Below, one piece after another: positions 32,335 to 63,027 of a stretch of DNA of 64,000 nt (the stretch's first letter is position 1; each line of letters opens with the position of its first letter). A model generated the notes under the pieces. The model was not told the origin of the DNA, did no database searches, and saw nothing but the letters and a program-made list of their open reading frames with translations. The stretch lies in assembly GCA_029288615.1 (NCBI GenBank), contig JARIGV010000003.1, positions 1,068 through 65,067 on the forward strand, written 5' to 3'. The translations under genes and the position numbers were made by a program. Origin of the DNA: Candidatus Tayloriibacteriota bacterium (GTDB taxonomy: Bacteria > Patescibacteriota > Minisyncoccia > Phycocordibacterales > CAIRYW01).

Positions 32335-33043
32335 GATAAGTCTTATCATCTGCGCTTACAACGAAGAGAAATATATTGGAAGCTGTTTGGAGCATGTTCA
32401 AAAAAACGCTCATGATAATTTTTTTGAAATAATCGTTGTTGATAATGCATCAACAGATACAACAAAAGAAATCGCTTCAAGGTTTCATAATGTACGAGTA
32501 GTGGAAGAAATACAAAAGGGTCTTACAAGAGCACGCCAACGTGGTTTTCTTGAAGCAAAAGGAGATGTTTTGGCATATATTGATGCAGATACACAAATGC
32601 CTACTGGCTGGTACGAGAGAGTTTCATATGAATTTAAAGAAAATCCTAAACTTGCTGCTCTTTCAGGCCCTGCACTCTACTACGATATTCCTGCATGGCA
32701 GAGATTCCTTGTTTTGGTTTACTGGTATCTTTTTGGAATGCCTGTCTATTTTGTCGTTGGTTTTATGATCATGGGCTCGAATTTTGCCATTCGAAAAGAT
32801 GTACTACAAAAGATGAATGGTTTTGATACAAAAATTGAATTTTATGGAGAAGATACAAACGTCGCGAGACGTGCGAGCAAATTTGGTAAAGTAAAATTCA
32901 CACCAAAACTTAAAATGTACTTTTCTGGTCGCAGACTTCACAATCAAGGACTCTTAAATACCGGCTACGAATATGTAAAAAATTTCCTCTCCGAAGCATT
33001 TCTTAAAAAACCTGTGACTACACATTATAAAGATTTCAGATAG
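32321..33043 (+). CDS. Glycosyltransferase family 2 (GT-A)
   Basis: ISLIICAYNEEKYI...VVDNASTDTT...AYIDADT (DXD). Overlaps the GT4 gene by 14 nt. Confidence 0.75.
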   Translation: MHEPKISLIICAYNEEKYIGSCLEHVQKNAHDNFFEIIVVDNASTDTTKEIASRFHNVRVVEEIQKGLTRARQRGFLEAKGDVLAYIDADTQMPTGWYERVSYEFKENPKLAALSGPALYYDIPAWQRFLVLVYWYLFGMPVYFVVGFMIMGSNFAIRKDVLQKMNGFDTKIEFYGEDTNVARRASKFGKVKFTPKLKMYFSGRRLHNQGLLNTGYEYVKNFLSEAFLKKPVTTHYKDFR

Positions 33044-43689: not shown

Positions 43690-45177
43690 TTAATAGCGGA
43701 GTTTATATTCATAGAGAGTGAGCCCTGGCGAAAATTCATCTGAATACAATTTTTGGTAGTGAGTGTCAAAATAAAGCTCTACATCTTTTTGATACCCTTG
43801 GTCATAGCTTAAGAGAAGCCAGAGATTGCTGTGGTTTGCTTCGAGTGTGGCTACATCTTTTACAAGTTCATCTTTTGAATATGCTGGGATCGGACCATTC
43901 GCTTCCTGATTCCAAATAGGAAGCGTTGTAAGTGTTGCTGGCCCACGATAATAATAGAGCATTGGATAAATCGTAAACGGAGCAGAGACGACGATAATAT
44001 CCGAAGCCGATGCATTCCTCTCAAGGAATGTGCTCGCTTCTTCATAATTTTCTTTTACAGGCGTTGATGCTGACACTCCTTCAAAAACAAGCGTTGCTGC
44101 CATGAGAGCGATCAAAATACATTTCACAGCAAGAGAAAGAGTCTTGGGATATGTTGAGAAAAGCCAACCCAAGAAAAGATACATCGATGGAATCGTAAAT
44201 ATAAGATAGCGAGTCAAATAAATCGGCGACAGTGTGAGACTTACAATGAAAGCAATGACGTTTGGAAGAAGAAAGACAATGAGAAAGTAAAGCGTCTCTG
44301 GCGCCATTCCTTTGCCTTTTCGAAGAGCAAGAAATCCCAAAAAAACAGTAAGAGGCCACAAAGACACCAATATGGTATTGAGGTGGTCTGTTTGGAATCC
44401 AAACAAGAATTGAGAGAAGGTGTTAAAAAGATCTACAGTTGAAGGTGCAGTGAGCGCCGGTTCAGAACTTGAAATGCCTCCAAGATATATGACAAAAAGT
44501 GCCCAGGGCAAAAAACAGACAATCAGAAAAATTCCGATCTTGAAGAATTTCTTGAAAGCATCTTTTGGGAAAATTTCCTTATGGAAGAAATAGAAAATCA
44601 TGTCGCAGAGTACGAGAAGGAAAAAGAAATAATGCGTATACATACCACATACCGAAACTAGAGCAAACCAAAACCAATCCATGAAATCTCCCCTCTTCCA
44701 TATTTTTACGAAGAAATATTCATGAAGAATTGCCACAAGCACAAACATGCTGTACATACGGATCTCATTTCCGTACCAATTCATAAATGGCGACAGTGTT
44801 AGGAGCGCCGCAACAAAAATTCCAGTTTTTCTTCCATAGCAAATAGCACCTAAAGAATAAATTGCAGGAATTGATAATAAGAAGAAAACAAGTGAAAGAA
44901 GCCTATCGACGGCAACATCATTTCCAAGAAATATTTGCCACGTATGGAGAATAAGATGATAGAGCGGCACGTGCACATCTTTACCTACAAGAGAAAGCAT
45001 CCCCATAACTGTACGCGATGTCTGCCAAATACTTTGTGATTCATCGAGGCGGAGACTTTGCTCTCTGAAGAATACGATCGAGAGAAGCGCCGCAAATAGC
45101 ATAAGCATTAAAATGATCGGAAAATCTGTCGATATCCACGAAGGCGCAGCTTCTGTTTTTTTAACTTCGTTTTCCAT
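43690..45177 (-). CDS. GT-C fold glycosyltransferase, family 39 / PMT_2-like (polyprenyl-phosphate-sugar-dependent mannosyl/arabinosyl-transferase)
   Basis: 495 aa, about 11 N-terminal TM helices with a C-terminal extracytoplasmic domain. Early loop ...LRLDESQSIWQT..., like the ArnT/PMT DE-motif region. Confidence 0.6.
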   Translation of the reverse strand: MENEVKKTEAAPSWISTDFPIILMLMLFAALLSIVFFREQSLRLDESQSIWQTSRTVMGMLSLVGKDVHVPLYHLILHTWQIFLGNDVAVDRLLSLVFFLLSIPAIYSLGAICYGRKTGIFVAALLTLSPFMNWYGNEIRMYSMFVLVAILHEYFFVKIWKRGDFMDWFWFALVSVCGMYTHYFFFLLVLCDMIFYFFHKEIFPKDAFKKFFKIGIFLIVCFLPWALFVIYLGGISSSEPALTAPSTVDLFNTFSQFLFGFQTDHLNTILVSLWPLTVFLGFLALRKGKGMAPETLYFLIVFLLPNVIAFIVSLTLSPIYLTRYLIFTIPSMYLFLGWLFSTYPKTLSLAVKCILIALMAATLVFEGVSASTPVKENYEEASTFLERNASASDIIVVSAPFTIYPMLYYYRGPATLTTLPIWNQEANGPIPAYSKDELVKDVATLEANHSNLWLLLSYDQGYQKDVELYFDTHYQKLYSDEFSPGLTLYEYKLRY

Positions 45178-45186
45178 GGATTTTAT

Positions 45187-46740
45187 TTAGACTGAAACAG
45201 AAACAGATTTATCAACTGTTCTCGCTACATGTTTTGAATGCGATTTTGCTCCCGATGGAAGAGCGGCATAAATTGACGGAACGAATACTCCGACCATAAG
45301 AGCTGCCCAAGCGATGTTTGCAATAAATGATGCAGAAAATCCTTCACGCATAAGTGCAATAGGAATACCACCAAGAACAAGAACAATATAAGCAATATGC
45401 GGAATAACAAGTGAGACAAAATTTCCCTCCACCTGCTTCTTTGGTGTCACTTGGAATGAAGATTTTTCGCGAGTGATCGCAGCCCAAATAGCTTTGATAT
45501 GGATCGTGAATGCACCCATTGAAAATGTAAGAGCGCGGAATGTGAATGAAAAATTACTTGAAAGCTGAATCATGTAGAGTGTAAGGAAGATATAGGGAAG
45601 GAATATAGCGGCAAGGAACATTGTTGAAACAGTAAACGCGATCATTCCGGTGTAAAGGAAGATAACTGGAATAAGCGCATTCATCACAACCACAAGTCCT
45701 GAGAAATAGAAGCTGATCGAAGAGAAATACTGAAATTTCTGTGCAAGAGAAAGATGGCGTCGACTAAGAAAACCGAAAGCGAGTGCATCAAAACCTCCCC
45801 TTGCCCATCGGAATTGTTGTTTTGAATACGAGAGAAAATCTTCTGGCGCCAAACCTTCAGCGAGGACTTCTGGCACATAGACAGACGTAAGACCTTTTTC
45901 GTGAAGCAAAAGACCAGTAAGAAAGTCTTCAGCAATACTATCTTCCGACATTCCACCTACAGAACAAAGCATGTCACGACGAAGTACCATGTTTGTACCA
46001 CACATAGTCACACCATTGAATCTATTTCGACCACGACAGATCGGGCCAAAGAAAAGTTCCTGCTGTTCCCACGCACTTCGTGTAATATAGTTTTTCGCAA
46101 AATTTCTATAGAACTGCGGAGTCTGTACGAAAGCAACTTTAGGATCAAAAAAGTATGTAGCAGTTTTTGAAAGAAAATCTGCGTGTGGAATATGATCAGC
46201 ATCGAAAATTGCAACGAGTCCATTTCCTTCGCCCCATCCTGTTTCTCGAAGTGCATTATTTATATTTCCCGCTTTCGCACCTCCTGGTGTTTTTCGAGTA
46301 ATACAAAATACACCGAGTTTTTCTGCCACGTCTTCTGCCTCTTTCCAATTCTCCTTCTTCGCAACATATCCATCATTGAGAATATATACAGAAAAATCAG
46401 GATAGGTCATATTCTTTACAGCTCGTGTTGTCTCTTCAACAATATCCGCTTCTTCTCCTGCTACAGTAATGAAAACATCCACATGTGGCGTAAATGATGG
46501 ATCTCTTTTATGAAGATAGCTTGTATCCCATGTTGTGAAAATGAAAGAGAGCACTTGATACACATGAAAAATTTCACCAGCAATAAGAAGAGCGAAGAGA
46601 AGACTGACTCCCACAGGAAAAGTGAAAGCGATCACATAGAAATACACGACCGATAAAATAGCTGTTACCGTGAAAAGTCCTCTATGGCTTCTTGTTTGCA
46701 AAAATGCTGTTTTTGCTTTTTCGAATGAATTATTTTTCAT
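45187..46740 (-). CDS. Processive family-2 glycosyltransferase, cellulose-synthase-like (BcsA/CesA-like catalytic core, no PilZ domain)
   Basis: D, DxD (FDADH), TED-like and QQFRWARG (QxxRW) motifs flanked by TM helices; 517 aa. Confidence 0.75.
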   Translation of the reverse strand: MKNNSFEKAKTAFLQTRSHRGLFTVTAILSVVYFYVIAFTFPVGVSLLFALLIAGEIFHVYQVLSFIFTTWDTSYLHKRDPSFTPHVDVFITVAGEEADIVEETTRAVKNMTYPDFSVYILNDGYVAKKENWKEAEDVAEKLGVFCITRKTPGGAKAGNINNALRETGWGEGNGLVAIFDADHIPHADFLSKTATYFFDPKVAFVQTPQFYRNFAKNYITRSAWEQQELFFGPICRGRNRFNGVTMCGTNMVLRRDMLCSVGGMSEDSIAEDFLTGLLLHEKGLTSVYVPEVLAEGLAPEDFLSYSKQQFRWARGGFDALAFGFLSRRHLSLAQKFQYFSSISFYFSGLVVVMNALIPVIFLYTGMIAFTVSTMFLAAIFLPYIFLTLYMIQLSSNFSFTFRALTFSMGAFTIHIKAIWAAITREKSSFQVTPKKQVEGNFVSLVIPHIAYIVLVLGGIPIALMREGFSASFIANIAWAALMVGVFVPSIYAALPSGAKSHSKHVARTVDKSVSVSV

Positions 46741-47938
46741 AGCTTATTCCCGAGGAAAGATTCGGAAGGAGATTGTCGTAAAGGGCAATTCCAAACCACG
46801 CCCAGTTTGCATCGTAATAACTAAGTGGCGTTTTCCAATTTTCCGTATCTTGGTCGAATAAAATTTTAAGTTTCTGATTATAAACATCGTCTGCATCTGC
46901 AGTGTCTGAAACGGCAAAATAACCTATAGCGCCGCCATACATCGCAGGTACTTCTGAAGACGCAACAATAGAGCCATCATGACCATATACAGAGGCGAGC
47001 ATCTTACTGTTTTGCCACTGTGATGAAAGAAATCCAAGCTTATCGAGGTATTGTTTTGCTTCAGGAGCCTTAAACCATTCATAATCAAGTGCAACTCTCC
47101 ATGGCACACGAAGTGCATCGAAACTAAAGTTTGTCGTGAGATTTGAAATTCCTGTTGCAGAAATTGCAGCTTTTGTTTTATCTATTTCTATCCAATCTGG
47201 TGGAAGACCAGAGGAACTTCCTTTATCAAGTTGTGAAGACGCAGAATTATTGAGAAGTGCATACGAAGTATCGACAAGAGAAACCCAATCATGGCTGCGA
47301 TCTATATTTGCAAAGATGCGATATGCATATGGTTCAAAATATGAAGGGTTGATGATGGGTTTTGAGGAAGAAAATTTCTCAAGATTGTTTGCAGTGAGAT
47401 ATGGCTTTCCTGCTATTACCACTACTTCCTTATCCCAAATATCACCCATGATCGCCTTTGCTTCAGTGAGATATTTTGTGTCATTCCATCTGTCGTATGC
47501 GAAAACAAGTGCGAGCGCAATATCAGTATCAGCATCAGTTGCTGCATTCTGTCCTCCCCTATCTGTAAGAATTCCATATGAGCCGTCTGTTTTTTCTCCA
47601 AAAAGCCACGCAAATAGATTGTCGTCCTTGTGCTTCAAATTATTATTCGTCCACTGCAATCCTTTATCGAAAGTTCCTTTATCATCCATCCACACTGCAC
47701 GCAAAAGCAAATAACCCTGTCCCTCGGATGTTGTAATGTTGTTCTGACTCTTATCGATCGCGCGTCCATCGGGATTTATATAATCGCTCTTATAATGAGA
47801 CCAGAGCGATGTGACCATATCTTTATCAGAAAAGACAAGTGAAGTGTGACCGAAAACGCCATTGAAATAAAGAATTGCAATACACAGGATAACGGCAAGT
47901 ACAATCAACGCATACCCGATGACATAGTTTTTTTCCAT
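46730..47938 (-). CDS. Glycoside hydrolase family 8 endoglucanase (BcsZ-like)
   Basis: GH8 signature ATDADTDIALALVFAY plus ...TSEGQGYLLL...; N-terminal TM/signal. Confidence 0.7.
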   Translation of the reverse strand: MEKNYVIGYALIVLAVILCIAILYFNGVFGHTSLVFSDKDMVTSLWSHYKSDYINPDGRAIDKSQNNITTSEGQGYLLLRAVWMDDKGTFDKGLQWTNNNLKHKDDNLFAWLFGEKTDGSYGILTDRGGQNAATDADTDIALALVFAYDRWNDTKYLTEAKAIMGDIWDKEVVVIAGKPYLTANNLEKFSSSKPIINPSYFEPYAYRIFANIDRSHDWVSLVDTSYALLNNSASSQLDKGSSSGLPPDWIEIDKTKAAISATGISNLTTNFSFDALRVPWRVALDYEWFKAPEAKQYLDKLGFLSSQWQNSKMLASVYGHDGSIVASSEVPAMYGGAIGYFAVSDTADADDVYNQKLKILFDQDTENWKTPLSYYDANWAWFGIALYDNLLPNLSSGISYEK

Positions 47939-49241: not shown

Positions 49242-49958
49242 ATGCTTGTATCAATTATTATCCCCGCATATAACGAAGAAAAAAGAATAGGAAAAACCCT
49301 TTCTGCGATTTATTCGTATCTTGCAAAACAAAAATATCAAAGTGAGATCATCGTTGTTGATAACGGCTCAGAAGATAGAACAGCAGAAATCGTCGAGATT
49401 TATAAAAGCAATATTCCAAACCTCAGTCTTATTAAAGAAGCAAGTTATGGAAAAGGCTGGGCAGTAAAACAAGGAATGCTTGCTGCTAAGGGAGATTTTC
49501 GTCTCTTTACTGATGCTGATAATTCCACTGATATTAGCGAACTTGCAAAACTCCTTCGCTTTGCGCAAAACGGTTACGATGTTGTCGTAAGTTCACGTCT
49601 TGCGAAAGGCGCAATTGTCATCCACCCTCAACCAGGTTGGAGAAAGACTCTTGGAAAAGTGTTCGCATGGATTGTGCATCTTCTTGTACCAGTAAAAGTA
49701 AAGGACACCCAAAACGGCTTCAAAATTTTCTCACGTGAAGCTGCGGAAAAAATATTTTCTCATCAGACAATTTTCTATTGGGCATTCGATGTAGAGATTA
49801 TTGCGCTCGCTGAGAAATTTAAATTTAAAGTAAAAGAAGTACCAATCCGTTGGGTCAACGATGACAGAAGCCATATGAGCATGACTGGTATGGTCCGTAT
49901 GCTCTTTGAAGTAACACTTGTGCGACTTCATCTAATGACGAGAGACTACGCATCCTAA
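49242..49958 (+). CDS. Family-2 glycosyltransferase, polyprenyl-phosphate sugar (DPM1/GtrB/Ppm1-like) synthase
   Basis: IIIPAYNEEKRI...IVVDNGSEDRT...TDADNS (DAD)...; 238 aa, size and motifs of dolichyl/polyprenyl-phosphate mannose/glucose synthases. Confidence 0.75.
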   Translation: MLVSIIIPAYNEEKRIGKTLSAIYSYLAKQKYQSEIIVVDNGSEDRTAEIVEIYKSNIPNLSLIKEASYGKGWAVKQGMLAAKGDFRLFTDADNSTDISELAKLLRFAQNGYDVVVSSRLAKGAIVIHPQPGWRKTLGKVFAWIVHLLVPVKVKDTQNGFKIFSREAAEKIFSHQTIFYWAFDVEIIALAEKFKFKVKEVPIRWVNDDRSHMSMTGMVRMLFEVTLVRLHLMTRDYAS

Positions 49959-52640: not shown

Positions 52641-53167
52641 ATAAACACAGCAAGCGCAAGTGCTGTAACAAGAATCTCTGCAATTCCAGAAATACTTTTA
52701 AAATGATTTTTAATAACTCCACTCCAGCGCGATATTCGTGGCACATCTTTCTTCGCCCATTCAAATGGAAAAGTAAAAAATTTATCCGACAAAGGCCAGA
52801 ACCATTTGGCCCCAAAGACAAATGAATCACAAAGTAGATGGCTCCACGGTGAGAGCCATACCAAAAGTCCCAAAGCTTTTACAAAATCACTTGCAAAAAT
52901 ATCTCCGCAGAAAAAGACAACGCAGCCAAAAAGAAACCAAAAGATCGCGGTGTGTGTAATATAGCCGCGGTGCCCATCGGTGACTGCAGGAGTCAAAGTT
53001 TTCTTTTTGAGGAAACTTAAGAAAATATCAAAATCTGGACCATCACCTAAAAGGGTACCGATCGTATAGATTGCAATATTTTCATTTCCAGAAAATTGAA
53101 AACCAGCAACATGAAGCACAGCATATGTTGTCAGATATCCAGCAGCTAAATGTCCCGGTAAGATCAT
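52631..53167 (-). CDS. Membrane-bound metal-dependent hydrolase family (YdjM/DUF457-like) protein
   Basis: N-terminal MILPGHLAAGYL and GDGPDFD motifs typical of this family; 4-5 TM. Confidence 0.5.
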   Translation of the reverse strand: MILPGHLAAGYLTTYAVLHVAGFQFSGNENIAIYTIGTLLGDGPDFDIFLSFLKKKTLTPAVTDGHRGYITHTAIFWFLFGCVVFFCGDIFASDFVKALGLLVWLSPWSHLLCDSFVFGAKWFWPLSDKFFTFPFEWAKKDVPRISRWSGVIKNHFKSISGIAEILVTALALAVFIWG

Positions 53168-54261
53168 TCTCTTATTCTACGGCGCAAAAGCACATACAAC
53201 AAGGTAACGATCGCAGCGCATACTAGAAAGATTTTTGTATTTATATTATTACTTTGACTCTGTGTTTCAGGCATTACCTCGGCAGAAGCTTTGCCAATTT
53301 TCATGATCGCAAATCGTGTTAAGTGAGATACTGAAAATGTCACAGTATTTCCATCTATTTTAATGTTCGGTACTTCACTCCATGTATTTTTTGTCGTATC
53401 AAACCAAAATACACCGATCTTCTCGCCAACAAGAGACTCCGGCACAGTCAGTGTAATCGTAAGCGGTTTGCTAAATGTATGAATCTCCTTTCCTGATGGA
53501 TCTTTTGCAACAATATCAAAGAAAACTTTTCCAAGGGTTTCTATGATCACATCGAAAGTGGCATTTACAATGTGTGTTGTGACTGTAATTTTTTGAGGAT
53601 AAGCGCCGGCAGGTACATACACTTTCGCGTGTGAAAGTCCTGACAAATTAGACGAATCATTTGGAAAAACTTTCTTTGGATCATTCTTGTTAGTCACTAT
53701 GTGATTGACGACAGGATAAATAGATGGAAAAAAATTGCTATCACTATGTATGACGCCAGCACTTCCAATTCGTGCCGCTATTGAAGAGGTTCCACTATTT
53801 TGTGTATTTGAAACAGCGTTGCGCACATCACAGAGATTACAATCAAAATTTACTCTACCCACAGCATCTCCTTCATTTCCTGCTATACCACTCCATTTTC
53901 CATCTGTTCCAATTGTCACTCCACTCATAGAAAGCCAACCGAGATTTGGAACCCATGCAGAACCACTGAGATGTCCATTCGCATCAATAGAAACTCCCTG
54001 CCCAGAATTCGTCGGACTGAAATTGATCCAACCATACTCTTTGCTCCACGCATATCCTGTTACAGAAGCGTCTGTTACAACAACGCCTTGATACTCACCA
54101 TTATTTTCCGGGGCAAAATTGATCCATCCCATATTTTCTCCCCATGCATATGAATGCGAAGCATCAACAGTTTGTGATGAAGCAAAGACAGAAGTGGAAC
54201 AAAGAAAAAAAAGTGAGACAAGAATGATGAGTGCGTTATTTTTTCTCACATTTCGAGCCAT
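53164..54261 (-). CDS. Secreted repeat protein (G.AW....GWI.F aromatic repeats, possibly glycan/cell-wall binding) with C-terminal TM anchor
   Basis: Signal peptide; three or more repeats YAWGENMGWINFAPEN / YAWSKEYGWINFSPTN / SAWVPNLGWLSMSG; C-terminal hydrophobic helix + RRRIRE. Confidence 0.45.
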   Translation of the reverse strand: MARNVRKNNALIILVSLFFLCSTSVFASSQTVDASHSYAWGENMGWINFAPENNGEYQGVVVTDASVTGYAWSKEYGWINFSPTNSGQGVSIDANGHLSGSAWVPNLGWLSMSGVTIGTDGKWSGIAGNEGDAVGRVNFDCNLCDVRNAVSNTQNSGTSSIAARIGSAGVIHSDSNFFPSIYPVVNHIVTNKNDPKKVFPNDSSNLSGLSHAKVYVPAGAYPQKITVTTHIVNATFDVIIETLGKVFFDIVAKDPSGKEIHTFSKPLTITLTVPESLVGEKIGVFWFDTTKNTWSEVPNIKIDGNTVTFSVSHLTRFAIMKIGKASAEVMPETQSQSNNINTKIFLVCAAIVTLLYVLLRRRIRE

Positions 54262-54263
54262 AA

Positions 54264-57200
54264 CTATTCTGTAGTCGCTTGATTATCTGGAGTATTTGAA
54301 ACTTGCTCACTCTGTGAATCATCTTGTACTGGGGTTTGAGAAGAATCAGGTGTTGATGTTGCTACAACCTCGGGAGTTGAGGTACTCAAAGTATCTGGCG
54401 AAACACTCATGATATCTGGAGTCGACGTTGATTCCTCAGTAGATGATGTCGCATCTTTAAAAGAAGAAGGTGCTATGTTTTGTTTCGAAAGAAGCTCCTG
54501 AAGTTCTTTTTCAGTGACACATGTGTCACCCACACACAATTTACTTGTATCCACTTCATGAGCAAAAATTTTGTCGAAAATTCCCTCCGCCAATGTATTC
54601 ACCTTCGCATAAAGCTCTTTCACCGCTTCAATGATTACAGCGGTAAGATGTGTGTAATCAAGAGTGTAGTAACCATTTGGTGCCAAATGTACCAAATCTG
54701 GGAATTGCTTTGCCACATCTTGTGCAATAAGACCATAATTTTTAGTTTGTCCGTTCATCATCGGATACATAGAAAGATACGTGCTATTCCAATTGAATGT
54801 CACTGCATCAAGCGCTGTGAGTTTATCGAGAGTCGATGTCGTATCTGATGCGACTGCAAGATTTGTAATATTTGTTTTAAGTCTCATATCTGAGAAAGAG
54901 CTCATACATCCATTTGAAAACTGTGAACAAATATCACCTGATGCAAAAATATCTCCGCCGACATCAAGCTTGTGAGTTGGCGACAAAACGCCAACTCCAA
55001 GATTTCCCGATGTTGTAAGGACCAATTGCGAACCAGTCGCATCATCTGCCCCTCCCCACATACCACTGACCGACAGCGCACTACTTGCTTTTGTAATGAA
55101 AACATTTCCAGAAGGACCATTGTTATCATTCACCAAAGGAAAATAACGAGTCGGAATGTCTTCGCCACTATCCATATGAACACTTAGATTGCCAAGATTG
55201 TGGTTAATAATAATGGCATTATTGAAATTACTTGCGGTACCAATAATAGTGACGGGATCAATTTCAACAGCGTAATGACCACTCGCCACACTATTATCAC
55301 TATCAAATTCAAACACTGTTGATCGACTACCATCACTTACTGTCACTGTGTCGCCGTCAGCGGGCTGAGTATTAATTTTTATTGATCCTCGTGCGGGTGC
55401 AGCCACACTTGTTACAGAATTCGGCATACCAGCATTGAAAGTAAGATTGCCATTAGAATTTCCAATTGCTCCATTTACATCGAGAGCATACGCAGGTGTT
55501 GCAGTACCAATACCAATATTTTCTCCTCCGGTGTATGTCACATATGTTCCATCATCTGTAAAAGGCGAAGTGCTTGCTGCTTTGCCATCAGAAAAGAGCG
55601 AGCCGTTATGATAAATATTTCCCGTGAAATTAATGTCTCCGCTCACATCAAGATTAAATCCAGGCGCAACATTATTCACACCAACAAATCCATTCGATAC
55701 CGTAAGCGGATGTACGACACCATCACTTGGCAGTGCCATGTGATCTGCAGGAATTATTTGGAGTGATTGGTTATTGCTCTCCCATGAAAGATGCAAACAC
55801 TCTCCCGTCGCATCAGAACCTACATAATGCTCGATCTTTATTGCAGTCCATTTATTTTTTACAAGATTTACCGTCGCGGTGTGTGCTGTACATGTCGCCT
55901 GGTCATTCCAGTCGTCGATCACCAAATTTCCATCAATCCACAAACGCACTCCATCGTCGGCGCTCAAATGAATCGTATACGTTTCGCTATAGTCTGCTTT
56001 GATAAATCCAGAGATATTTCCAGCGTAATTATTTTCTACACCTTGTGGAGCATAATCATCGACGTCGACTGGACCAAATTGCGTTGAAAGGATCATGCCG
56101 CCGATTTCAGGATTTGATCCTCCATACCAAAATGAATAGAGTCCGCCGACGTTACCGACAAATGATGTATTTGTTACTCCAAAAGTTCCATACACATCGA
56201 GTTTATGTAGTGGTGTTGTTGTACCGATACCGACATTTCCATTTCCTTTAAATGTCACATTTGGTGTGAAAGTACTTGAATCTCCGCCATAGCCAAATTG
56301 CATATCAGAACTCGAAGTGTCTGTGTACATCTGGAGCAAATAATTTTGGATTCCAAAACCATATGCTGCACCTGGAGCACCATCATACAAAGCAATCTTG
56401 TTACCGAGTGCGCTACCAAGAGAAAGTTTTGCGTTGGGGCTATTCGTACCAATACCAACATTCTCATTGCCGTTGTAATACACATTACTGTTATCATCCG
56501 TAAATGGTGATGATCCGCCGCCAGTAAAAGCCACACCATTTTGATAAAGGTTTCCTGAAAAATTCACATCACCATCAACATTGAGAGCATATGAACCCGC
56601 ATTCGTGCCAATACCAACTCCAGTACCAAAAAATCCCGTTCCATGCACCTGCAAATCCTCGCCATTTCCTGTACCCGTATTGTTGTCACCACCCCAAGCA
56701 TTTCCAACAAGAACATTTCCGTTTGTTGTCACCATAAATGGGAAACTTTCATCTCCACCGCCACCTGTGTGTCCTGGTGTATCGTACACAACAGACATCA
56801 CAGGTTTACCGTCTCGCGCATCAAACCGAAGAATGGAACCACCGAGACTTGTATCGCGATCTCCAAACTGTGCGAAGTTGAGTCCAAGATTGAGAGTCTG
56901 TCTATTTGATTCATCGTTCAAACCATCTCCGATAAATCCTCCGCGCAAATTTCCAATCGTACTTGGAGTTATATAAAAAGCATTTGCTTGTGTTATTCCG
57001 TTTACATCAAGTGACTCTGTCGGATTATTCGTGCCAATACCGACATAGTTACCTCCGTTGTAATAAACTTCTGTACCATCATCGATGAACGGCGAAGAAC
57101 TCGCGCCGAGTCCTGCATACAGCTCACCATTTTTATAAAGATTTCCTGTGAAATTAATGTCGCCGTTGACATCAAGATTGAAAAAAGGATGATCAGTACC

Positions 57201-58190
57201 AATACCGACATTTCCAAATGGAGTAAGTCTCATGATTTCTCTCAAACCAAAATCTCCCCACTCTCCCTGATTTGTACTGAACGCTAGCCCTGCTCCGCCA
57301 GGAGCGTATGCTACAGATTGAATACTTGCAGCCGGGTCAGCAAAAAAGGGCACATTCGTATCACGGAAAGCAATATTTGAACCTTCGTTGTCAGATCCAA
57401 AATTACTTTGAAGTGTAAGCAGTGTATTCTGGCCGCTAGATGTTGTTGCAATATCTAGCATCGATAATGGATTCGTCGTACCGATGCCGACAAATCCATT
57501 ATTCACGATATTCATCACAGGATTTCCATTTGTCGCAAAGACAATTTGTCCTTCGCCATTGAGATCACTGTCTGCTGCAAAAGAAAGATCGTCAGGAGTT
57601 GTGATACCCGTTGTTGTCGATGCAGATGTACCCATGAAAGTACCGTCCGGAAAATAAAGACCGTTGCCAAGTCCAGAAATTTTTAGATTACCGTTTACAT
57701 CAAGTGTGGCAGTTGGATTTGTCGTGCCAATACCAACACTTCCATTTGTATATGTCAGCACTCCTTCACCTTGATCTGTCCACTGACTTCCAGAAAAAGG
57801 AGTTCCGTTTTGGTAGAGAGTTCCTGTGAAATTGATATCGCCGTTTACATCAAGATTGTAGTTTGGCGCATTATTTCCAATACCCACAAACCCGTCGTTG
57901 TAATAAATACTTCCCTCGTTGTTTGACCATTGTGAAGAAATTGGCAGTGTTACTGTACAGTTATCTTCCGTCGGCGCACATTCTGGGTTTAGAGTTTCAC
58001 CAGGATTATACGGACTATTATTCCATGCTGCGGAAGCCCGAAAAGGCGTAAAAAGTATAAAAAATAAAAGTGAGAATATGAGTACTAAATGCTCTTTTTT
58101 GGGCATGTATCGAGTGCGAGAAAGTTTTTTCAAAAAACACCGAAGACACTTCTTCGGCCGGTCATCATGGGTTTTCTTTCGCAAGCTCAA
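54264..58190 (-). CDS. Giant (1308-aa) secreted surface protein: tail-fibre-like G(N)VGIGT/DVNGDINFTGxLYxNG repeats, PA14 domain, C-terminal peptidase-S74 intramolecular-chaperone domain, S/T/P-rich tail
   Basis: Signal/TM at the N-terminus; eight or more copies of the short repeat pair. PA14-like block ...GFIKADYSETYTIHLSADDGVRLWIDGNLVIDDW... (about nt 55700-55975). S74-like block SFSDMRLKTNITNL...LDAVTFNW...GLIAQDVAKQFPDLV...LDYTHLTAVIIEAVKEL (about nt 54545-54880). Acidic S/T/P-rich C-terminus. Confidence 0.7.
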   Translation of the reverse strand: MSLRKKTHDDRPKKCLRCFLKKLSRTRYMPKKEHLVLIFSLLFFILFTPFRASAAWNNSPYNPGETLNPECAPTEDNCTVTLPISSQWSNNEGSIYYNDGFVGIGNNAPNYNLDVNGDINFTGTLYQNGTPFSGSQWTDQGEGVLTYTNGSVGIGTTNPTATLDVNGNLKISGLGNGLYFPDGTFMGTSASTTTGITTPDDLSFAADSDLNGEGQIVFATNGNPVMNIVNNGFVGIGTTNPLSMLDIATTSSGQNTLLTLQSNFGSDNEGSNIAFRDTNVPFFADPAASIQSVAYAPGGAGLAFSTNQGEWGDFGLREIMRLTPFGNVGIGTDHPFFNLDVNGDINFTGNLYKNGELYAGLGASSSPFIDDGTEVYYNGGNYVGIGTNNPTESLDVNGITQANAFYITPSTIGNLRGGFIGDGLNDESNRQTLNLGLNFAQFGDRDTSLGGSILRFDARDGKPVMSVVYDTPGHTGGGGDESFPFMVTTNGNVLVGNAWGGDNNTGTGNGEDLQVHGTGFFGTGVGIGTNAGSYALNVDGDVNFSGNLYQNGVAFTGGGSSPFTDDNSNVYYNGNENVGIGTNSPNAKLSLGSALGNKIALYDGAPGAAYGFGIQNYLLQMYTDTSSSDMQFGYGGDSSTFTPNVTFKGNGNVGIGTTTPLHKLDVYGTFGVTNTSFVGNVGGLYSFWYGGSNPEIGGMILSTQFGPVDVDDYAPQGVENNYAGNISGFIKADYSETYTIHLSADDGVRLWIDGNLVIDDWNDQATCTAHTATVNLVKNKWTAIKIEHYVGSDATGECLHLSWESNNQSLQIIPADHMALPSDGVVHPLTVSNGFVGVNNVAPGFNLDVSGDINFTGNIYHNGSLFSDGKAASTSPFTDDGTYVTYTGGENIGIGTATPAYALDVNGAIGNSNGNLTFNAGMPNSVTSVAAPARGSIKINTQPADGDTVTVSDGSRSTVFEFDSDNSVASGHYAVEIDPVTIIGTASNFNNAIIINHNLGNLSVHMDSGEDIPTRYFPLVNDNNGPSGNVFITKASSALSVSGMWGGADDATGSQLVLTTSGNLGVGVLSPTHKLDVGGDIFASGDICSQFSNGCMSSFSDMRLKTNITNLAVASDTTSTLDKLTALDAVTFNWNSTYLSMYPMMNGQTKNYGLIAQDVAKQFPDLVHLAPNGYYTLDYTHLTAVIIEAVKELYAKVNTLAEGIFDKIFAHEVDTSKLCVGDTCVTEKELQELLSKQNIAPSSFKDATSSTEESTSTPDIMSVSPDTLSTSTPEVVATSTPDSSQTPVQDDSQSEQVSNTPDNQATTE

Positions 58191-60318: not shown

Positions 60319-63027
60319 TTATTCATTTAATTTTAGGAGCAATAACGCAATATCTTTCTTTGTATTTCTTTTTTCTAAGCCATTCAATATTTTATTTTCT
60401 GTTTCCGGAGTCCAATATATTTTTAGCTTCTCTTTTGCTCTCGTGATAGCTGTATAAAAAATATTATGTGTAACCATCTCCTCTATCTCATTAGTTATGA
60501 CAATTTTAACTGAATTGAATTCCAATCCTTGTGCCTTATGAATAGAGACAGCGTAAGAAACCTGGAATGGAACTATCGCTTTTGAAGATGATTCATCATC
60601 ATCTTCATCTGTACTAACATACATATTTACAGAAAAACGAATAATAGATTTACTTCCATCAGAAGTGTTACCAATTAACTGGAAGTCGTAGCCTTCGACA
60701 TCAAACTCATTTACTACCTTATCGATCTCAATGTCAAATTCAATTTTATTTGAGGTTTTTTTGATACCGACGATCTTACCCTTAAGGTTGTTATAAATAA
60801 GCGGTGAGTATCTGTTCATCTCATTGAACAGAACAGGATCTCCTATTTTGTAAGTATGCACGCCCCAATATATAGGGCTATTTTTATTATTACTCTGAAG
60901 GAATCTGTTGATGTTATTGATCCCATATAGACCGTCATAATTCAGACAGAGCACAATCTCGTCATCTTCAGCACTCACAAAGAAAGATTTGTCCAGCTTT
61001 ATGGAGTACTTATTCTTTGTAATATGTTCAAGAATATCATTTTCTATGTTTCTTACTTTATTCCAGAGAGTAATGAGCTTCTCGTTGGTACTTCGATATG
61101 GCTTAGTCAACTCAAATCTTGAGGTCTGAGGAACGAAAGATTGGGCTATGTTAAACCAATTTCCAAAGTTTATAGACTCAATCTGAAACACATCACCAAC
61201 CAGGACAAGAAGCTTGGAGTCTGCCTTTTCAAGTACCAATCGCATATCTGAATTACTGACGGTGCTACACTCATCAATGATCAATATATCGTAATCTGTA
61301 TCAGTATTTTTCAGTGAAATAAATTTACTGATTGTCTTATATGTGCAGTTAGCAGCTTGCACTTTTCTCCTAAGGTTGTCTACTGCGGGATTAGTATTTG
61401 CGAGATAAAGCTTCGTCTTATCATTAAAAAAGTTCGAGATGTGATTTATCATCGTCGACTTTCCCGTCCCTGCAGCACCGTACACCAATGCAACTTTTGA
61501 TTTTTCAAAAAGTTTTTTTAACGCATCCTTTTTCTCTTCGCAGTCAACGATGTGTGTGGATGTTTGAAGCCAAGAATCTATAGAATTTGAATAGTTTCTA
61601 ATACCTGAAGCAGAAAGATCGGTCAATTTTCTAATGATATATAACGCAGCTTCTTCATAACCTTTTATATATACATGGTCCTTAAACTTTTCCAACTTTC
61701 GATATTCATGTTTGAAATACAATAAAGAATTGTATTTCTCAATTAACATGTCGACATTTTTAAATCCTTTAGTTTCACTTATTGGAGTATAAAGCTGACC
61801 ATCAATCTCATTTTTATTCGTTATGAACTTTGCCAACATTTCATGTTCTCGTCCTGTCGCATCGATACAATCGAATAAGTCATGTATTCTTGGCTTATGA
61901 TTAAGCGGCGATGAATTAAAAGGCATTTCATCAAACGGGATACAGCCGTATTCCAGTTTTAAATTTGAAAGTTTGTCGCACTCATCAATACTGTACTGCT
62001 GTTTAATAATCTTATTATTAAGCCTATATAGGAGATATCTGGTTATATTTGTCCCTGGCTTCTTGGCTTTTATAAAAGCACGGACTTTATCCAATACGTC
62101 AAAGATATATTTAGTCTTTGCAGTACTAACTATCTTAGCCCTAACACTTTCGTAGTAATCATCTGACAAATCAATAAACTCTATAAGATTAAGTCCAGTC
62201 TTGGTCAAAAATCTCATCAGTTCCTTATACTCATTTGCATTTTGGATCTTAGGATCTTTTCCAAATATTTTTGCAAAATTATTCAACTCGCAAGGGCGAA
62301 TAGATACTTCCCAATCATTGATGATTTGAATGGGCATATTCTTGTCTATGATCTTAATATTGTCAGTAGTTAAGGACAGTTTAACTGCATAATTATCCGA
62401 AATATCTAACCTAGTGAAAGCGATCACTCTATCAAACTTACTTGTATTGTCGTTTGCGCGTGTAAAAGTAACTTCGTAGTAAACTTCGTAATTAACAAAA
62501 AAGGGCTTTATCTTCTGAATGTAAAATCTATCACTGTGAACACCTTTAGGGTCGACGGGTTTTAGTTGAATTATCTTTTCAGCGATCTTTTCGTGATACT
62601 CTTTGAGGACCGAGTCAGTATTCATTGGGAAAACATCTATATTCTTGAGCACTTCCAAGTCGTAAGTATTTTTTAGATACGACTTTATCTTCAACATATA
62701 CTCATAATACTTAAGCATCAATCTTTCTGAGTTTTCTTCGTCAGGGGTATAGTGAGAAATCGTCTTTTGAAGAAGCTTGTGAAAATTACTCAAAAATCGG
62801 AGTTCACCTCTAGTTTTAACGTAGGTTTCAGCTTTTTTTATATTCTCATATGAGTTGTCAAAATCTTGACCATTACTAAATGCTTTTAATGAGATGTGAT
62901 CAACAAAATTTCTAAGTTGTGACAAAATATTCTGCGACAATAACCCTCTCTCTGAAGTATCAAATCTGTCGATGTTGGCAGATATAGACTTGTCTATAGT
63001 TAAAATTTCTGTGTCAATCTTATTCAT
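60319..63027 (-). CDS. Large (902-aa) protein: uncharacterised approximately 500-aa N-terminal region fused to an SF1B (RecD/Pif1/Dda-like, AAA_30 + UvrD_C_2-type) helicase
   Basis: C-terminal half: Walker A GAAGTGKST, Walker B ILIIDECS, LVLVGDVFQIESI, TKPYRS, SIHKAQGLEFNSV, YTAITRAKEKL. N-terminal half: K/N/I/Y-rich, no motif recognised. The gene and its flanks (about 60170-63100) are markedly more AT-rich than neighbouring genes. Confidence 0.7.
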   Translation of the reverse strand: MNKIDTEILTIDKSISANIDRFDTSERGLLSQNILSQLRNFVDHISLKAFSNGQDFDNSYENIKKAETYVKTRGELRFLSNFHKLLQKTISHYTPDEENSERLMLKYYEYMLKIKSYLKNTYDLEVLKNIDVFPMNTDSVLKEYHEKIAEKIIQLKPVDPKGVHSDRFYIQKIKPFFVNYEVYYEVTFTRANDNTSKFDRVIAFTRLDISDNYAVKLSLTTDNIKIIDKNMPIQIINDWEVSIRPCELNNFAKIFGKDPKIQNANEYKELMRFLTKTGLNLIEFIDLSDDYYESVRAKIVSTAKTKYIFDVLDKVRAFIKAKKPGTNITRYLLYRLNNKIIKQQYSIDECDKLSNLKLEYGCIPFDEMPFNSSPLNHKPRIHDLFDCIDATGREHEMLAKFITNKNEIDGQLYTPISETKGFKNVDMLIEKYNSLLYFKHEYRKLEKFKDHVYIKGYEEAALYIIRKLTDLSASGIRNYSNSIDSWLQTSTHIVDCEEKKDALKKLFEKSKVALVYGAAGTGKSTMINHISNFFNDKTKLYLANTNPAVDNLRRKVQAANCTYKTISKFISLKNTDTDYDILIIDECSTVSNSDMRLVLEKADSKLLVLVGDVFQIESINFGNWFNIAQSFVPQTSRFELTKPYRSTNEKLITLWNKVRNIENDILEHITKNKYSIKLDKSFFVSAEDDEIVLCLNYDGLYGINNINRFLQSNNKNSPIYWGVHTYKIGDPVLFNEMNRYSPLIYNNLKGKIVGIKKTSNKIEFDIEIDKVVNEFDVEGYDFQLIGNTSDGSKSIIRFSVNMYVSTDEDDDESSSKAIVPFQVSYAVSIHKAQGLEFNSVKIVITNEIEEMVTHNIFYTAITRAKEKLKIYWTPETENKILNGLEKRNTKKDIALLLLKLNE

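Follow-up and report, generated by a model that had tools for sequence, protein, structure and literature searches.

A probable cellular surface fibre with an S74 chaperone, a fused PA14 domain and a conserved membrane-anchored partner gene

The closest described systems to the gene considered here are the mosaic adhesive trimeric (MAT) adhesins of Bdellovibrio, which include S74-ended trimeric fibres made from cellular genes (Caulton 2024, PMC10769870). Of the 21 Bdellovibrio MAT fibres, 13 have an S74 end bearing an SDxxxK motif, and similar proteins have been listed for other predators and symbionts, a list from which Patescibacteria are absent (PMC10769870). MAT fibres are displayed on the surface, bind glycans and bind foreign cell surfaces, and after the signal peptide they carry a beta-rich N-terminal domain of ~130 aa that is described as invariant across all 21 MATs of B. 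bacteriovorus; the same authors describe the 'surface element' holding the fibres on the cell as still to be identified and raise a possible interplay with type IV pili (PMC10769870). How ultrasmall episymbiotic bacteria recognize and hold their hosts is largely unknown, with few candidates besides type IV pili (PMC11623550). In the 64-kb window, by which I mean the whole stretch of 64,000 nucleotides that was analyzed, there is a gene whose product is probably a homotrimeric surface fibre, cellular and exported through Sec, that belongs to one kind with the MAT adhesins and phage tail fibres. The most likely function is that of a surface fibre which is secreted, matures itself and bears a lectin, perhaps docked on a partner, and I infer that this fibre trimerizes, cleaves itself, is displayed at the surface and binds a ligand.

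The fibre open reading frame was confirmed at 54264..58190 on the reverse strand (1308 aa from a TTG), and all features described below lie on this same strand. The true start is probably M29, giving a most likely CDS of 1280 aa at 54264..58106, because a terminator-like hairpin of the upstream gene (58139..58158) lies within the 5' extension of the maximal frame, after the TTG and before the ATG at 58106, and because the public database copy of the protein is 1280 aa; the hairpin also argues for a separate transcription unit for the fibre gene. The signal peptide (58026..58106, residues 29-55), read from the sequence as KK, a hydrophobic core and a site between ASA and AW where it would probably be removed after directing export, is the only hydrophobic segment of the protein and fits a secreted protein or the surface protein that the original prediction had proposed. 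No anchor is evident within the fibre protein, and given this the fibre could simply be released from the cell. Residues 56-99 (57894..58025) form a module of the type AWxxxPYxPGxTLNPECxPTxDNCTV, common to the relative P0057 and the fibre at locus L018 and partly to P0038 and P0074, and this Cys module is the candidate cell-proximal end.

Shaft 1 (56169..57893, residues 100-674) is made of VGIGTxxPxxxL capping loops, DVNGDINFTG repeats and an 'FGIQ' module (residues 578-650) that is common to many relatives, and beyond the PA14 domain shaft 2 (55455..55700, residues 831-912) adds two further capping loops and a DVSGDINFTG repeat. The fibre holds nine strict matches to the capping-loop pattern [VI]G[IVGN][GNT]x..[PA]...[LF], four copies of DVNGDINFTGxLY and two degenerate loops seen by eye (GVGIGTNAGSYAL at about residue 525 and LGVGVLSPTHKL at 1064), which bears out the tail-fibre-like pair of repeated motifs noticed at the outset. 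When the whole window was scanned in six frames, all capping-loop matches fell inside the fibre frame, and the DNA repeat families D1 (8 copies), D2 (3) and D3 (3) are likewise all within the gene. Shaft 2 leads into an orphan domain (55056..55454, residues 913-1045), for which the homologue search found nothing except a 36-residue stretch in P0057, and then into a segment (54894..55055) comprising the last capping loop, LGVGVLSPTHKL, and a Cys1088/Cys1095 pair directly before the cleavage serine.

The Peptidase_S74, or intramolecular chaperone, domain (54546..54893, residues 1100-1215) was recognized by Pfam PF13884 at residues 1100-1168 (E=2.8e-11, 44 bits against a gathering cutoff of 22, full profile 1-58), and its SDxxxK motif at 1100-1105 reads S1100-D-M-R-L-K1105, with the S, D and K invariant in an alignment of 26 sequences. 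The AF2 model of this module has a pLDDT of 80-95 across the core, and Foldseek returned the MyRF ICA domain as its best PDB match (7dc3, probability 1.00, TM 0.68), with 3gw6 and 3gud, both phage chaperones, next in rank but not significant (E 0.05-0.17). As a profile, the capping loop plus S74 matches MyRF ICA (E=6e-24), the phage long-tail-fibre 6f45 (E=7e-22), T5 pb1, GA-1, Bdellovibrio Bd2133 (8ond, E=9e-20) and four chains named 'cell wall surface anchor family protein', whose PDB codes stand in the data list of the MAT paper. The S74 chaperone with its self-cleavage serine is therefore upheld by the Pfam score, the invariant S1100/K1105 pair and the modelled ICA fold, but its supposed position at the extreme C-terminus is not, since about 95 residues come after it: this extension (54267..54545) consists of a Cys hairpin, 'LCVGDTCVTEKELQELL', and a 73-aa acidic S/T/P-rich tail, both conserved in relatives that bear a signal peptide. 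A trimeric autotransporter adhesin was also considered and rejected, as Pfam gave no match to a YadA-type beta-barrel translocator and the protein ends in S74 with an acidic tail behind it.

PA14 is typically an inserted lectin module of surface proteins and glycosidases. The PA14 insert proposed within the shaft (55707..56147, residues about 682-828) scores, like S74, above its Pfam cutoff (PF07691, residues 719-815, E=3.5e-15, 56.5 bits against a gathering cutoff of 24) and resembles solved PA14 domains, with PDB sequence matches to RsgI3 PA14 (6qe7, E=6.5e-27) and anthrax PA (E=3e-4). Among 120 relatives listed out of at least 1,360, PA14 was present in two, namely the fibre's own database entry and P0057. 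At sister loci the lectin-like Laminin_G_3 protein is a separate gene, and it is on this protein that PA14 sits in L016 and L017.

Turning to the surroundings of the gene, the neighbours encode glycosyltransferases, GH8, a polysaccharide deacetylase, YdjM, DNA-alkylation repair, YgjP, an SF1 helicase and PGI/G6PD/6PGD, the 10 genes closest to the fibre gave no match to a PHROG structural family, and genes for a capsid, terminase, portal, sheath, tube or baseplate are absent from the window, which extends 54 kb on one side and 6 kb on the other. The DNA of the window is cellular, and the fibre gene is not in a recognizable prophage there, just as the absence of flanking phage structural genes had been read at first, and relatives of the same architecture sit among housekeeping genes too. 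A BcsA-like GT2, GH8 and deacetylase are found nearby, which would suit a role in the cell's own matrix as well as host attachment.

It is nevertheless highly improbable, rather than inconceivable, that the gene comes from a phage and continues to supply a phage-like particle, whether with a prophage tail fibre or with one for a tailocin or extracellular contractile injection system. The fibre matches 17 PHROG families at E<=0.01, 10 of them tail or tail-fibre families whose matches cover both the shaft and the C-terminus, but matches among GenBank phages are confined to 51 of 50,697 records, all below 38% identity and modular only, and a search of IMG/VR found no close relative. Among the best-scoring relatives, many have no signal peptide and a viral look; neither a virion fibre nor a tailocin fibre would be expected to carry the Sec signal peptide present here. 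At a distance of 2 kb, on the side where the window holds only 6 kb, its edge contains an SF1 helicase whose PHROG match is strong and Dda-like; even so, no virion or tail-machine genes appear across the two flanks, which largely refutes a phage-particle fibre within the window, and the cassette of fibre and partner is found again in housekeeping surroundings at six distinct loci, with the partner searched for and not found in viral contigs. Nor does the use of a tailspike folding module by a cellular gene look unusual any longer, as the original prediction had held, considering the S74-ended majority of MAT fibres and the homology search itself, which returned at least 1,360 relatives at E<=1e-5, several of which, from Patescibacteria, Pacebacteria and Elusimicrobiota MAGs, bear the name 'tail fiber domain-containing protein'.

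The partner gene (53164..54261, 365 aa) begins 2 nt downstream of the fibre stop and encodes a signal peptide, a GW-repeat domain (53812..54174, residues 30-150; three copies of 'AW(G/S)xxxGWINF' plus 'FDCxxCxV', pLDDT above 90), a linker, a ZU5/GAIN-like beta-sandwich (53296..53679, residues 195-322), a C-terminal TM helix (53170..53247, residues 339-364) and a basic tail. It adjoins S74 fibres at six distinct loci, a homologue comes directly after the fibre in L012 and L002, and in a search started from the partner all three orthologues examined lay just downstream of a giant S74 fibre; the fibres beside partner orthologues share the N-terminal motif (seen in L018), S74, and the C-terminal hairpin and tail. 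The partner is absent beside related fibres at two cellular loci, L011 and L014. The cassette in L002 stands directly after pilB/pilT/pilC, pilins and a prepilin peptidase, and pilM lies 2 kb downstream in L012, which together with the type IV pili interplay raised in the MAT paper (PMC10769870) would allow the fibre to be an accessory adhesin of a type IV pilus system and not free-standing, yet no type IV pilus gene is present in the scanned window ORFs or in L016-L020 and the fibre carries an ordinary signal peptide instead of a prepilin leader, making such a role very doubtful.

The fibre also heads a tightly spaced run of fibre, partner, YdjM and polysaccharide deacetylase, with a cellulose-synthase-like GT2, GH8, PMT_2 and another GT2 within 10 kb, and PA14 is commonly polysaccharide-binding, the closest solved relative, RsgI3, sensing plant polysaccharide. 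Hence the fibre may act on its own envelope or exopolysaccharide and not on a host cell, as a structural or matrix-binding element or as a tailspike-like polysaccharide-binding or -processing protein alongside the adjacent synthesis genes. I consider this unlikely, although deserving of some weight, since at the other loci the partner is kept but the polysaccharide genes beside the cassette are not, a search of the fibre for a glycosidase or lyase domain detected none, and characterized MAT fibres bind foreign cell surfaces (PMC10769870).

For the free-standing surface fibre that I prefer, maturation can be pictured from what the family does. After export, the S74 chaperone would bring three chains into register and nucleate folding of the upstream beta-helical shaft, the VGIGTxxPxxxL loops capping its turns; from the motif and the fold, S1100/K1105 would then be expected to cut the chain, leaving a stable trimer and freeing a fragment of ~209 aa made of the chaperone, Cys hairpin and acidic tail. 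The mature fibre would thereby display three PA14 lectin-type domains on its shaft, with the orphan domain near the distal tip once S74 is released, and may bind carbohydrate of another cell or of a polysaccharide matrix. At its other end, the N-terminal Cys motif could be held close to the cell by the co-transcribed, membrane-anchored GW-repeat partner.

The partner's beta-sandwich has the fold of a ZU5/GAIN subdomain B, and H313-L314-T315 (53317-53325), which covers the close of the penultimate strand and the turn leading to the last one (flanking strands 306-313 and 316-321), is invariant as an H-[LF]-[ST] type motif in 14 of 14 full-length orthologues. Against Pfam GPS PF01825, positions 4-44 of 45 are aligned at E=0.13 and 13.3 bits, below the cutoff of 22.5, and in one of 22 members only. 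Bacterial ZU5 surface proteins were proposed by Zhang et al. 2012 (PMC3482391). It is tempting, if distinctly speculative, to picture fibre and partner as a two-piece surface organelle of a Patescibacteria-like lineage, in which the S74-matured, lectin-bearing trimer would dock through its N-terminal Cys motif on the GW-repeat domain and the juxtamembrane ZU5/GAIN-like domain would cleave itself between HL and T, leaving a non-covalent, force-sensitive joint as in adhesion GPCRs for release or signalling upon host engagement. If HLT is a true cleavage site, it would be a single-pass, prokaryotic counterpart to the autoproteolysis module of adhesion GPCRs, and if the lineage is Patescibacteria, as the source names of related proteins suggest, the cassette, in which a phage-style, lectin-carrying fibre that would mature itself is accompanied by a conserved anchored partner, would be a concrete, testable candidate for host or substrate recognition, extending the MAT-fibre idea past predatory Proteobacteria and offering the partner as a candidate for the 'surface element' that holds MAT-like fibres on the cell.

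How, then, does this locus compare with known systems? The autoproteolytic ZU5-superfamily comparators of the partner are adhesion-GPCR GAIN/GPS, PIDD/UNC5 ZU5 and NLRP1/CARD8 FIIND, and unlike adhesion-GPCR GAIN/GPS the partner has a single-pass anchor and not 7TM, no GPS cysteines, no GAIN helical subdomain and a cleavage that is only putative. With RsgI3 6qe7, anthrax protective antigen and the fungal Flo/Epa GLEYA adhesins the fibre shares clear PA14 sequence membership, but the host architecture differs, being an S74 fibre shaft here. The S74 fold, Ser-Lys dyad and GxxAQ are common to the fibre and K1F endosialidase 3gw6, T5 pb1 4uw8/8hqz, the GA-1 neck appendage 3gud and the tip 6f45, and as in phage tail fibres and tailspikes the chaperone comes directly after a beta-helical trimer segment; the fibre differs in having a signal peptide, no nearby phage genes and a chaperone that is not at the extreme C-terminus. 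Eukaryotic MyRF ICA, the best structural and profile match of the S74 module, likewise has further sequence after the domain, but in MyRF that sequence anchors the protein in the membrane and a transcription factor is set free by cleavage, whereas here the following sequence lacks a TM and the upstream part would be an extracellular fibre. Closest of all is the MAT S74 subgroup (e.g. Bd3182), with which the fibre shares a chromosomal gene, a signal peptide, a mosaic of ~1,000 aa with variable lectin-type modules, the capping-loop consensus V-G-G/N-pi-x-x-P-x-x-x-L and a C-terminal S74 with SDxxxK; the fibre's profile also matches Bd2133 directly and, probably, another four MAT chains. In contrast to MATs, only 44 residues with a short Cys motif precede the first capping loop, leaving, as judged by length, no obvious room for a ~130-aa domain. 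The fibre is thus a variant on already known cellular S74 fibres, and what goes beyond the MAT precedent is its lineage-specific ends (the N-terminal Cys motif and the post-S74 hairpin with its acidic S/T tail), the PA14 domain fused into the shaft where sister loci have a separate lectin-like gene, and a conserved, previously undescribed membrane-anchored partner gene of the fibre's lineage.

The open reading frame at 54264..58190 on the minus strand encodes 1308 aa counted from its TTG codon, from which residues are numbered here, and the repeated motif pair noticed in the original prediction is borne out by a regular-expression scan, which finds nine strict capping loops of the form [VI]G[IV]G[TN]xxPxxxL (residues 102, 152, 234, 328, 383, 578, 653, 836 and 892) and four copies of DVNGDINFTGxLY; two degenerate capping loops (residues ~525 and ~1064) were recognised by eye. 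When all six frames of the 64-kb window were scanned, every match to the capping-loop motif fell in this ORF, and the DNA repeat families D1 (8 copies), D2 (3) and D3 (3) likewise lie entirely within the fibre gene. A diversity-generating retroelement was considered and rejected, with no template/variable repeat pair present and the long repeats all internal to the gene.

The start codon deserves comment, since a terminator-like hairpin (58158-58139, minus strand), probably belonging to the upstream DNA-alkylation-repair gene, falls after the TTG but ahead of the next ATG (58106), within the first 28 codons of the ORF (58107-58190), and the identical public protein has 1280 aa. For both reasons the sequence points to M29, at that ATG, as the most likely start, the protein then opening at once with a signal peptide in which KK precedes a hydrophobic core of 16 residues and ASA|AW; this is the sole hydrophobic segment of the fibre. 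An NCBIfam search of the fibre gave no meaningful match; a trimeric autotransporter was rejected for want of a matching domain, as was anchoring by sortase/LPXTG or PEP-CTERM, for which a C-terminal sorting signal is also missing. The stretch from the signal peptide to the first capping loop is only 44 residues long and bears the motif AWxxxPYxPGxTLNPECxPTxDNCTV, common to the related protein P0057 and the fibre of locus L018 and partial in two further relatives, P0038 and P0074.

Within the shaft sits the PA14 domain that had been proposed (Pfam, residues 719-815, E=3.5e-15, well over the gathering score), a region resembling the solved PA14 domains of RsgI3 (E=6.5e-27) and anthrax protective antigen and carried, among the 120 relatives listed, only by the fibre's own entry and by P0057. 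After the last shaft repeats, and ahead of the final capping loop, come ~130 aa (residues 913-1045, window 55056-55454, minus strand) that form a candidate distal binding domain; for the region 901-1045, Pfam was empty even at E<=10, the PDB gave no sequence match, and neither a search of 5.8 billion proteins nor a comparison with 123 relatives gave anything, the sole similarity being to a 36-residue stretch of P0057.

The tailspike-type chaperone, or S74 domain, is equally present (Pfam Peptidase_S74, residues 1100-1168, E=2.8e-11, well over the gathering score), and S1100-D-M-R-L-K1105 matches the SDxxxK dyad, whose S, D and K, together with a downstream G-x-x-A-Q, are invariant in an alignment of the C-terminal module with 25 relatives. 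An AlphaFold2 model based on this alignment gives the chaperone core a pLDDT of 80-95, and Foldseek ranks the MyRF intramolecular chaperone domain first (7dc3, probability 1.00, TM 0.68), followed by the K1F endosialidase (3gw6) and GA-1 (3gud) chaperones, both weak (E 0.05-0.17). The alignment profile also matches MyRF by sequence (E=6e-24), the phage long-tail-fibre tip 6f45 (E=7e-22), T5 pb1 (8hqz) and GA-1 (3gud), as well as Bdellovibrio Bd2133 (8ond, E=9e-20, a match that runs through the capping loop); it further matches four PDB chains named "cell wall surface anchor family protein", e.g., 8onf, which are probably Bdellovibrio mosaic adhesive trimeric (MAT) fibres too, since their codes stand in the data-availability list of the MAT paper (PMC10769870). 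The domain does not close the protein, however: it is followed by a helix, a predicted two-Cys beta-hairpin LCVGDTCVTEKELQELL and a 73-residue acidic S/T/P-rich tail. This post-S74 module (window 54267-54545, minus strand; hairpin pattern LCVGxTCVTxxELxxLL) recurs in five related proteins (P0038, P0052, P0062, P0072 and P0078) and in the fibres of loci L016, L018 and L020. O-glycosylation of the tail is conceivable, given that a gene for a PMT_2-family protein mannosyltransferase lies at 43690-45177.

The fibre's neighbours include PMT_2, a cellulose-synthase-like GT2, GH8, a second GT2, DUF5666, a polysaccharide deacetylase, YdjM, DNA-alkylation repair, YgjP and an SF1 helicase, with PGI, G6PD, 6PGD, transporters and thioredoxins further off in the window. 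If the gene instead encoded a prophage, tailocin or eCIS fibre, phage structural genes might be expected beside it; none of the 10 nearest genes matches a PHROG structural family, with 6 kb seen to the right of the gene, and the only strong PHROG match nearby is the helicase. Of 50,697 GenBank phage records, 51 match the fibre, at coverage <=41% and identity <38% and only over its S74 end or a few repeats, and a scan of IMG/VR based on a few peptide patterns found no close relative; the window was also scanned for tRNAs and Rfam families, with nothing found and so no clue to a tRNA-type integration site. As a taxonomic marker, G6PD reached 38% identity at best, to Chloroflexota, Dormiibacterota, Actinomycetota and Peribacteria, and a scan of genome contigs with the fibre gave no match. 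A phage-derived fibre is thus largely excluded within the window, in agreement with the original prediction that the gene lies outside any recognisable prophage, and on its sequence context, 6 kb of it on the right side, the gene is cellular. The helicase itself (902 aa, window 60319-63027, minus strand, Dda-like PHROG match at E=5e-77), 2 kb from the fibre gene and near the window edge, is the only phage-flavoured gene close to it.

The PMT_2, cellulose-synthase-like GT2 and GH8 genes form a run (window 43690-47938, minus strand) that recalls a BcsA/BcsZ-type exopolysaccharide module and lies 6-10 kb downstream of the fibre; a 50-nt direct repeat (32425-32474 and 49343-49392, 80% identity) links two GT2 genes 17 kb apart, probably reflecting paralogy at their conserved N-terminal motif. 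It is plausible that the fibre works in the cell's own polysaccharide matrix, as the nearby GT2, GH8 and deacetylase genes would suggest, although the polysaccharide genes are not kept at other loci.

At E<=1e-5 the homology search for the fibre yielded 1,360 proteins, and 21 of the 122 relatives inspected have signal-peptide-like N-termini, among them Patescibacteria, Pacebacteria and Elusimicrobiota MAG proteins labelled "tail fiber domain-containing protein"; relatives with a signal peptide are located among housekeeping genes. About 100 of the 122 have no signal peptide, many starting MADSACYIELASN..., and the sampled contexts of this group look viral. Examples are locus L001 (992-22477), with four tandem S74 fibre genes on a 377-kb contig, and locus L003 (10001-14215), with a repeat-only relative free of S74 on what looks like a giant virus contig bearing a Pox_A32 ATPase, MutS and ribonucleotide reductase. 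Phages, giant viruses and cellular bacteria therefore have the capping-loop repeat in common.

What accompanies the cellular fibre is a second gene (53164..54261, minus strand), beginning 2 nt past the fibre stop codon and encoding a 365-aa partner protein with no Pfam or PHROG match at standard thresholds. Homologues lie directly downstream of the fibre in loci L012 (E=2e-14) and L002 (E=1e-8), and a partner search found 43 relatives, about 15 full length and one named Candidatus Gribaldobacteria. The three orthologues examined (P0134, P0132 and P0137) all have a giant Peptidase_S74 fibre gene just upstream, amid genes such as SecA, ribonucleotide reductase and threonine synthase, and these fibres have the S74 domain, hairpin and tail in common with the window protein, with SSRRFK or SSMRFK as the catalytic motif in two of the three; the only one with a visible N-terminus (L018) has the same signal peptide and N-terminal motif. 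In all, fibre and partner are adjacent at six distinct loci, six of the six so far seen to carry the partner; two related cellular loci (L011 and L014) have no partner adjoining the fibre, and an IMG/VR scan resting on a few peptide patterns did not find the partner. The two genes are separated in L016-L019 by a Laminin_G_3 lectin-like protein together with a small TM protein of 182-186 aa (e.g., L016 6511-8991 and L018 6311-8986), and in L020 (8542-8997) by only a related 151-aa TM protein; the window has neither the small TM protein nor the separate LamG gene. In L016 and L017 the lectin-like protein also carries PA14, which in L016 is 31% identical (E=6e-14) to the fused copy of the window fibre, and a domain fused in one cassette and separate in another argues that the components work together. 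The cassette adjoins type IV pilus genes in L002 (646-9334; pilB/pilT/pilC, pilins and prepilin peptidase) and lies near pilM in L012 (7724-8731), and this gene neighbourhood at two loci is the only basis for an accessory role of the fibre in the pilus.

Alignment of the partner orthologues and an AlphaFold2 model resolve a signal peptide, a conserved domain (residues 30-150, pLDDT >90) with three AW(G/S)xxxGWINF repeats, here called GW repeats, and FDCxxCxV, a variable linker, a beta-sandwich (residues 195-322, pLDDT ~85) and a C-terminal TM helix with a basic tail. Fold matches of the sandwich include the GAIN domains of adhesion GPCRs (CD97, 9.7; CELSR1, BAI3, GPR126 and LPHN3), the UNC5B ZU5 domain (9.4) and the CARD8/NLRP1 FIIND. 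The motif HLTxFA[IV] is invariant in 14/14 full-length orthologues, and in the model H313 closes the penultimate strand, L314 and T315 form a tight turn and the last strand spans 316-321, the TM helix starting about 20 residues beyond. The GPS site of adhesion GPCRs is HL|TxFAVL (summarised in PMC10328401), and the partner shares its sequence and, in the model, its geometry, self-cleavage here being putative; the Pfam GPS model aligns nearly end to end, below threshold (E=0.13). The idea of an autoproteolytic ZU5-type partner has precedent, since ZU5-superfamily autopeptidases were proposed in bacterial surface proteins (Zhang et al., 2012; PMC3482391).

Given a signal peptide, a capping-loop shaft, PA14, an S74 fold with its dyad, a cellular context and a conserved partner, each seen in sequence or models, a mechanism can be sketched in which, by family analogy, S74 would nucleate trimerisation and self-cleavage at S1100 would free about 209 residues, the hairpin and tail departing with the released chaperone, to leave a stable fibre whose length would be tens of nm. 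Carbohydrate would be bound by PA14, the orphan tip domain or both, and the N-terminal Cys motif might dock on the GW-repeat domain of the partner, itself tethered to the membrane via a possibly self-cleaved ZU5/GAIN-like joint.

The original prediction regarded cellular use of a tailspike folding module as unusual, a view that is not supported because the kind is already known and abundant. Bdellovibrio bacteriovorus has 21 MAT fibres with signal peptides (Caulton et al., 2024; PMC10769870), which are surface-displayed and bind prey glycans, 13 of the 21 ending in S74 with SDxxxK, and whose shaft capping-loop consensus, V-G-G/N-pi-x-x-P-x-x-x-L, is the very motif noted in the window fibre. 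On this precedent the class of cellular fibre adhesins with a tailspike chaperone is already known, and the window gene is a further example from a new lineage; the same paper gives S74-like examples from other predators and Omnitrophica, with no Patescibacteria among them, and no published description of S74 fibres or a GW-repeat partner in Patescibacteria was found in a literature whose coverage was incomplete. Interest is moderate and would be greater if the partner turns out to be the fibre's anchor. All 21 MATs are reported to have a ~130-aa domain after the signal peptide, whereas the window fibre has its 44-residue motif region instead; it is best filed with the MAT-like, S74-matured cellular fibre adhesins, from which its ends, its fused PA14 and a conserved partner gene, for which no earlier published account was found, set it apart.
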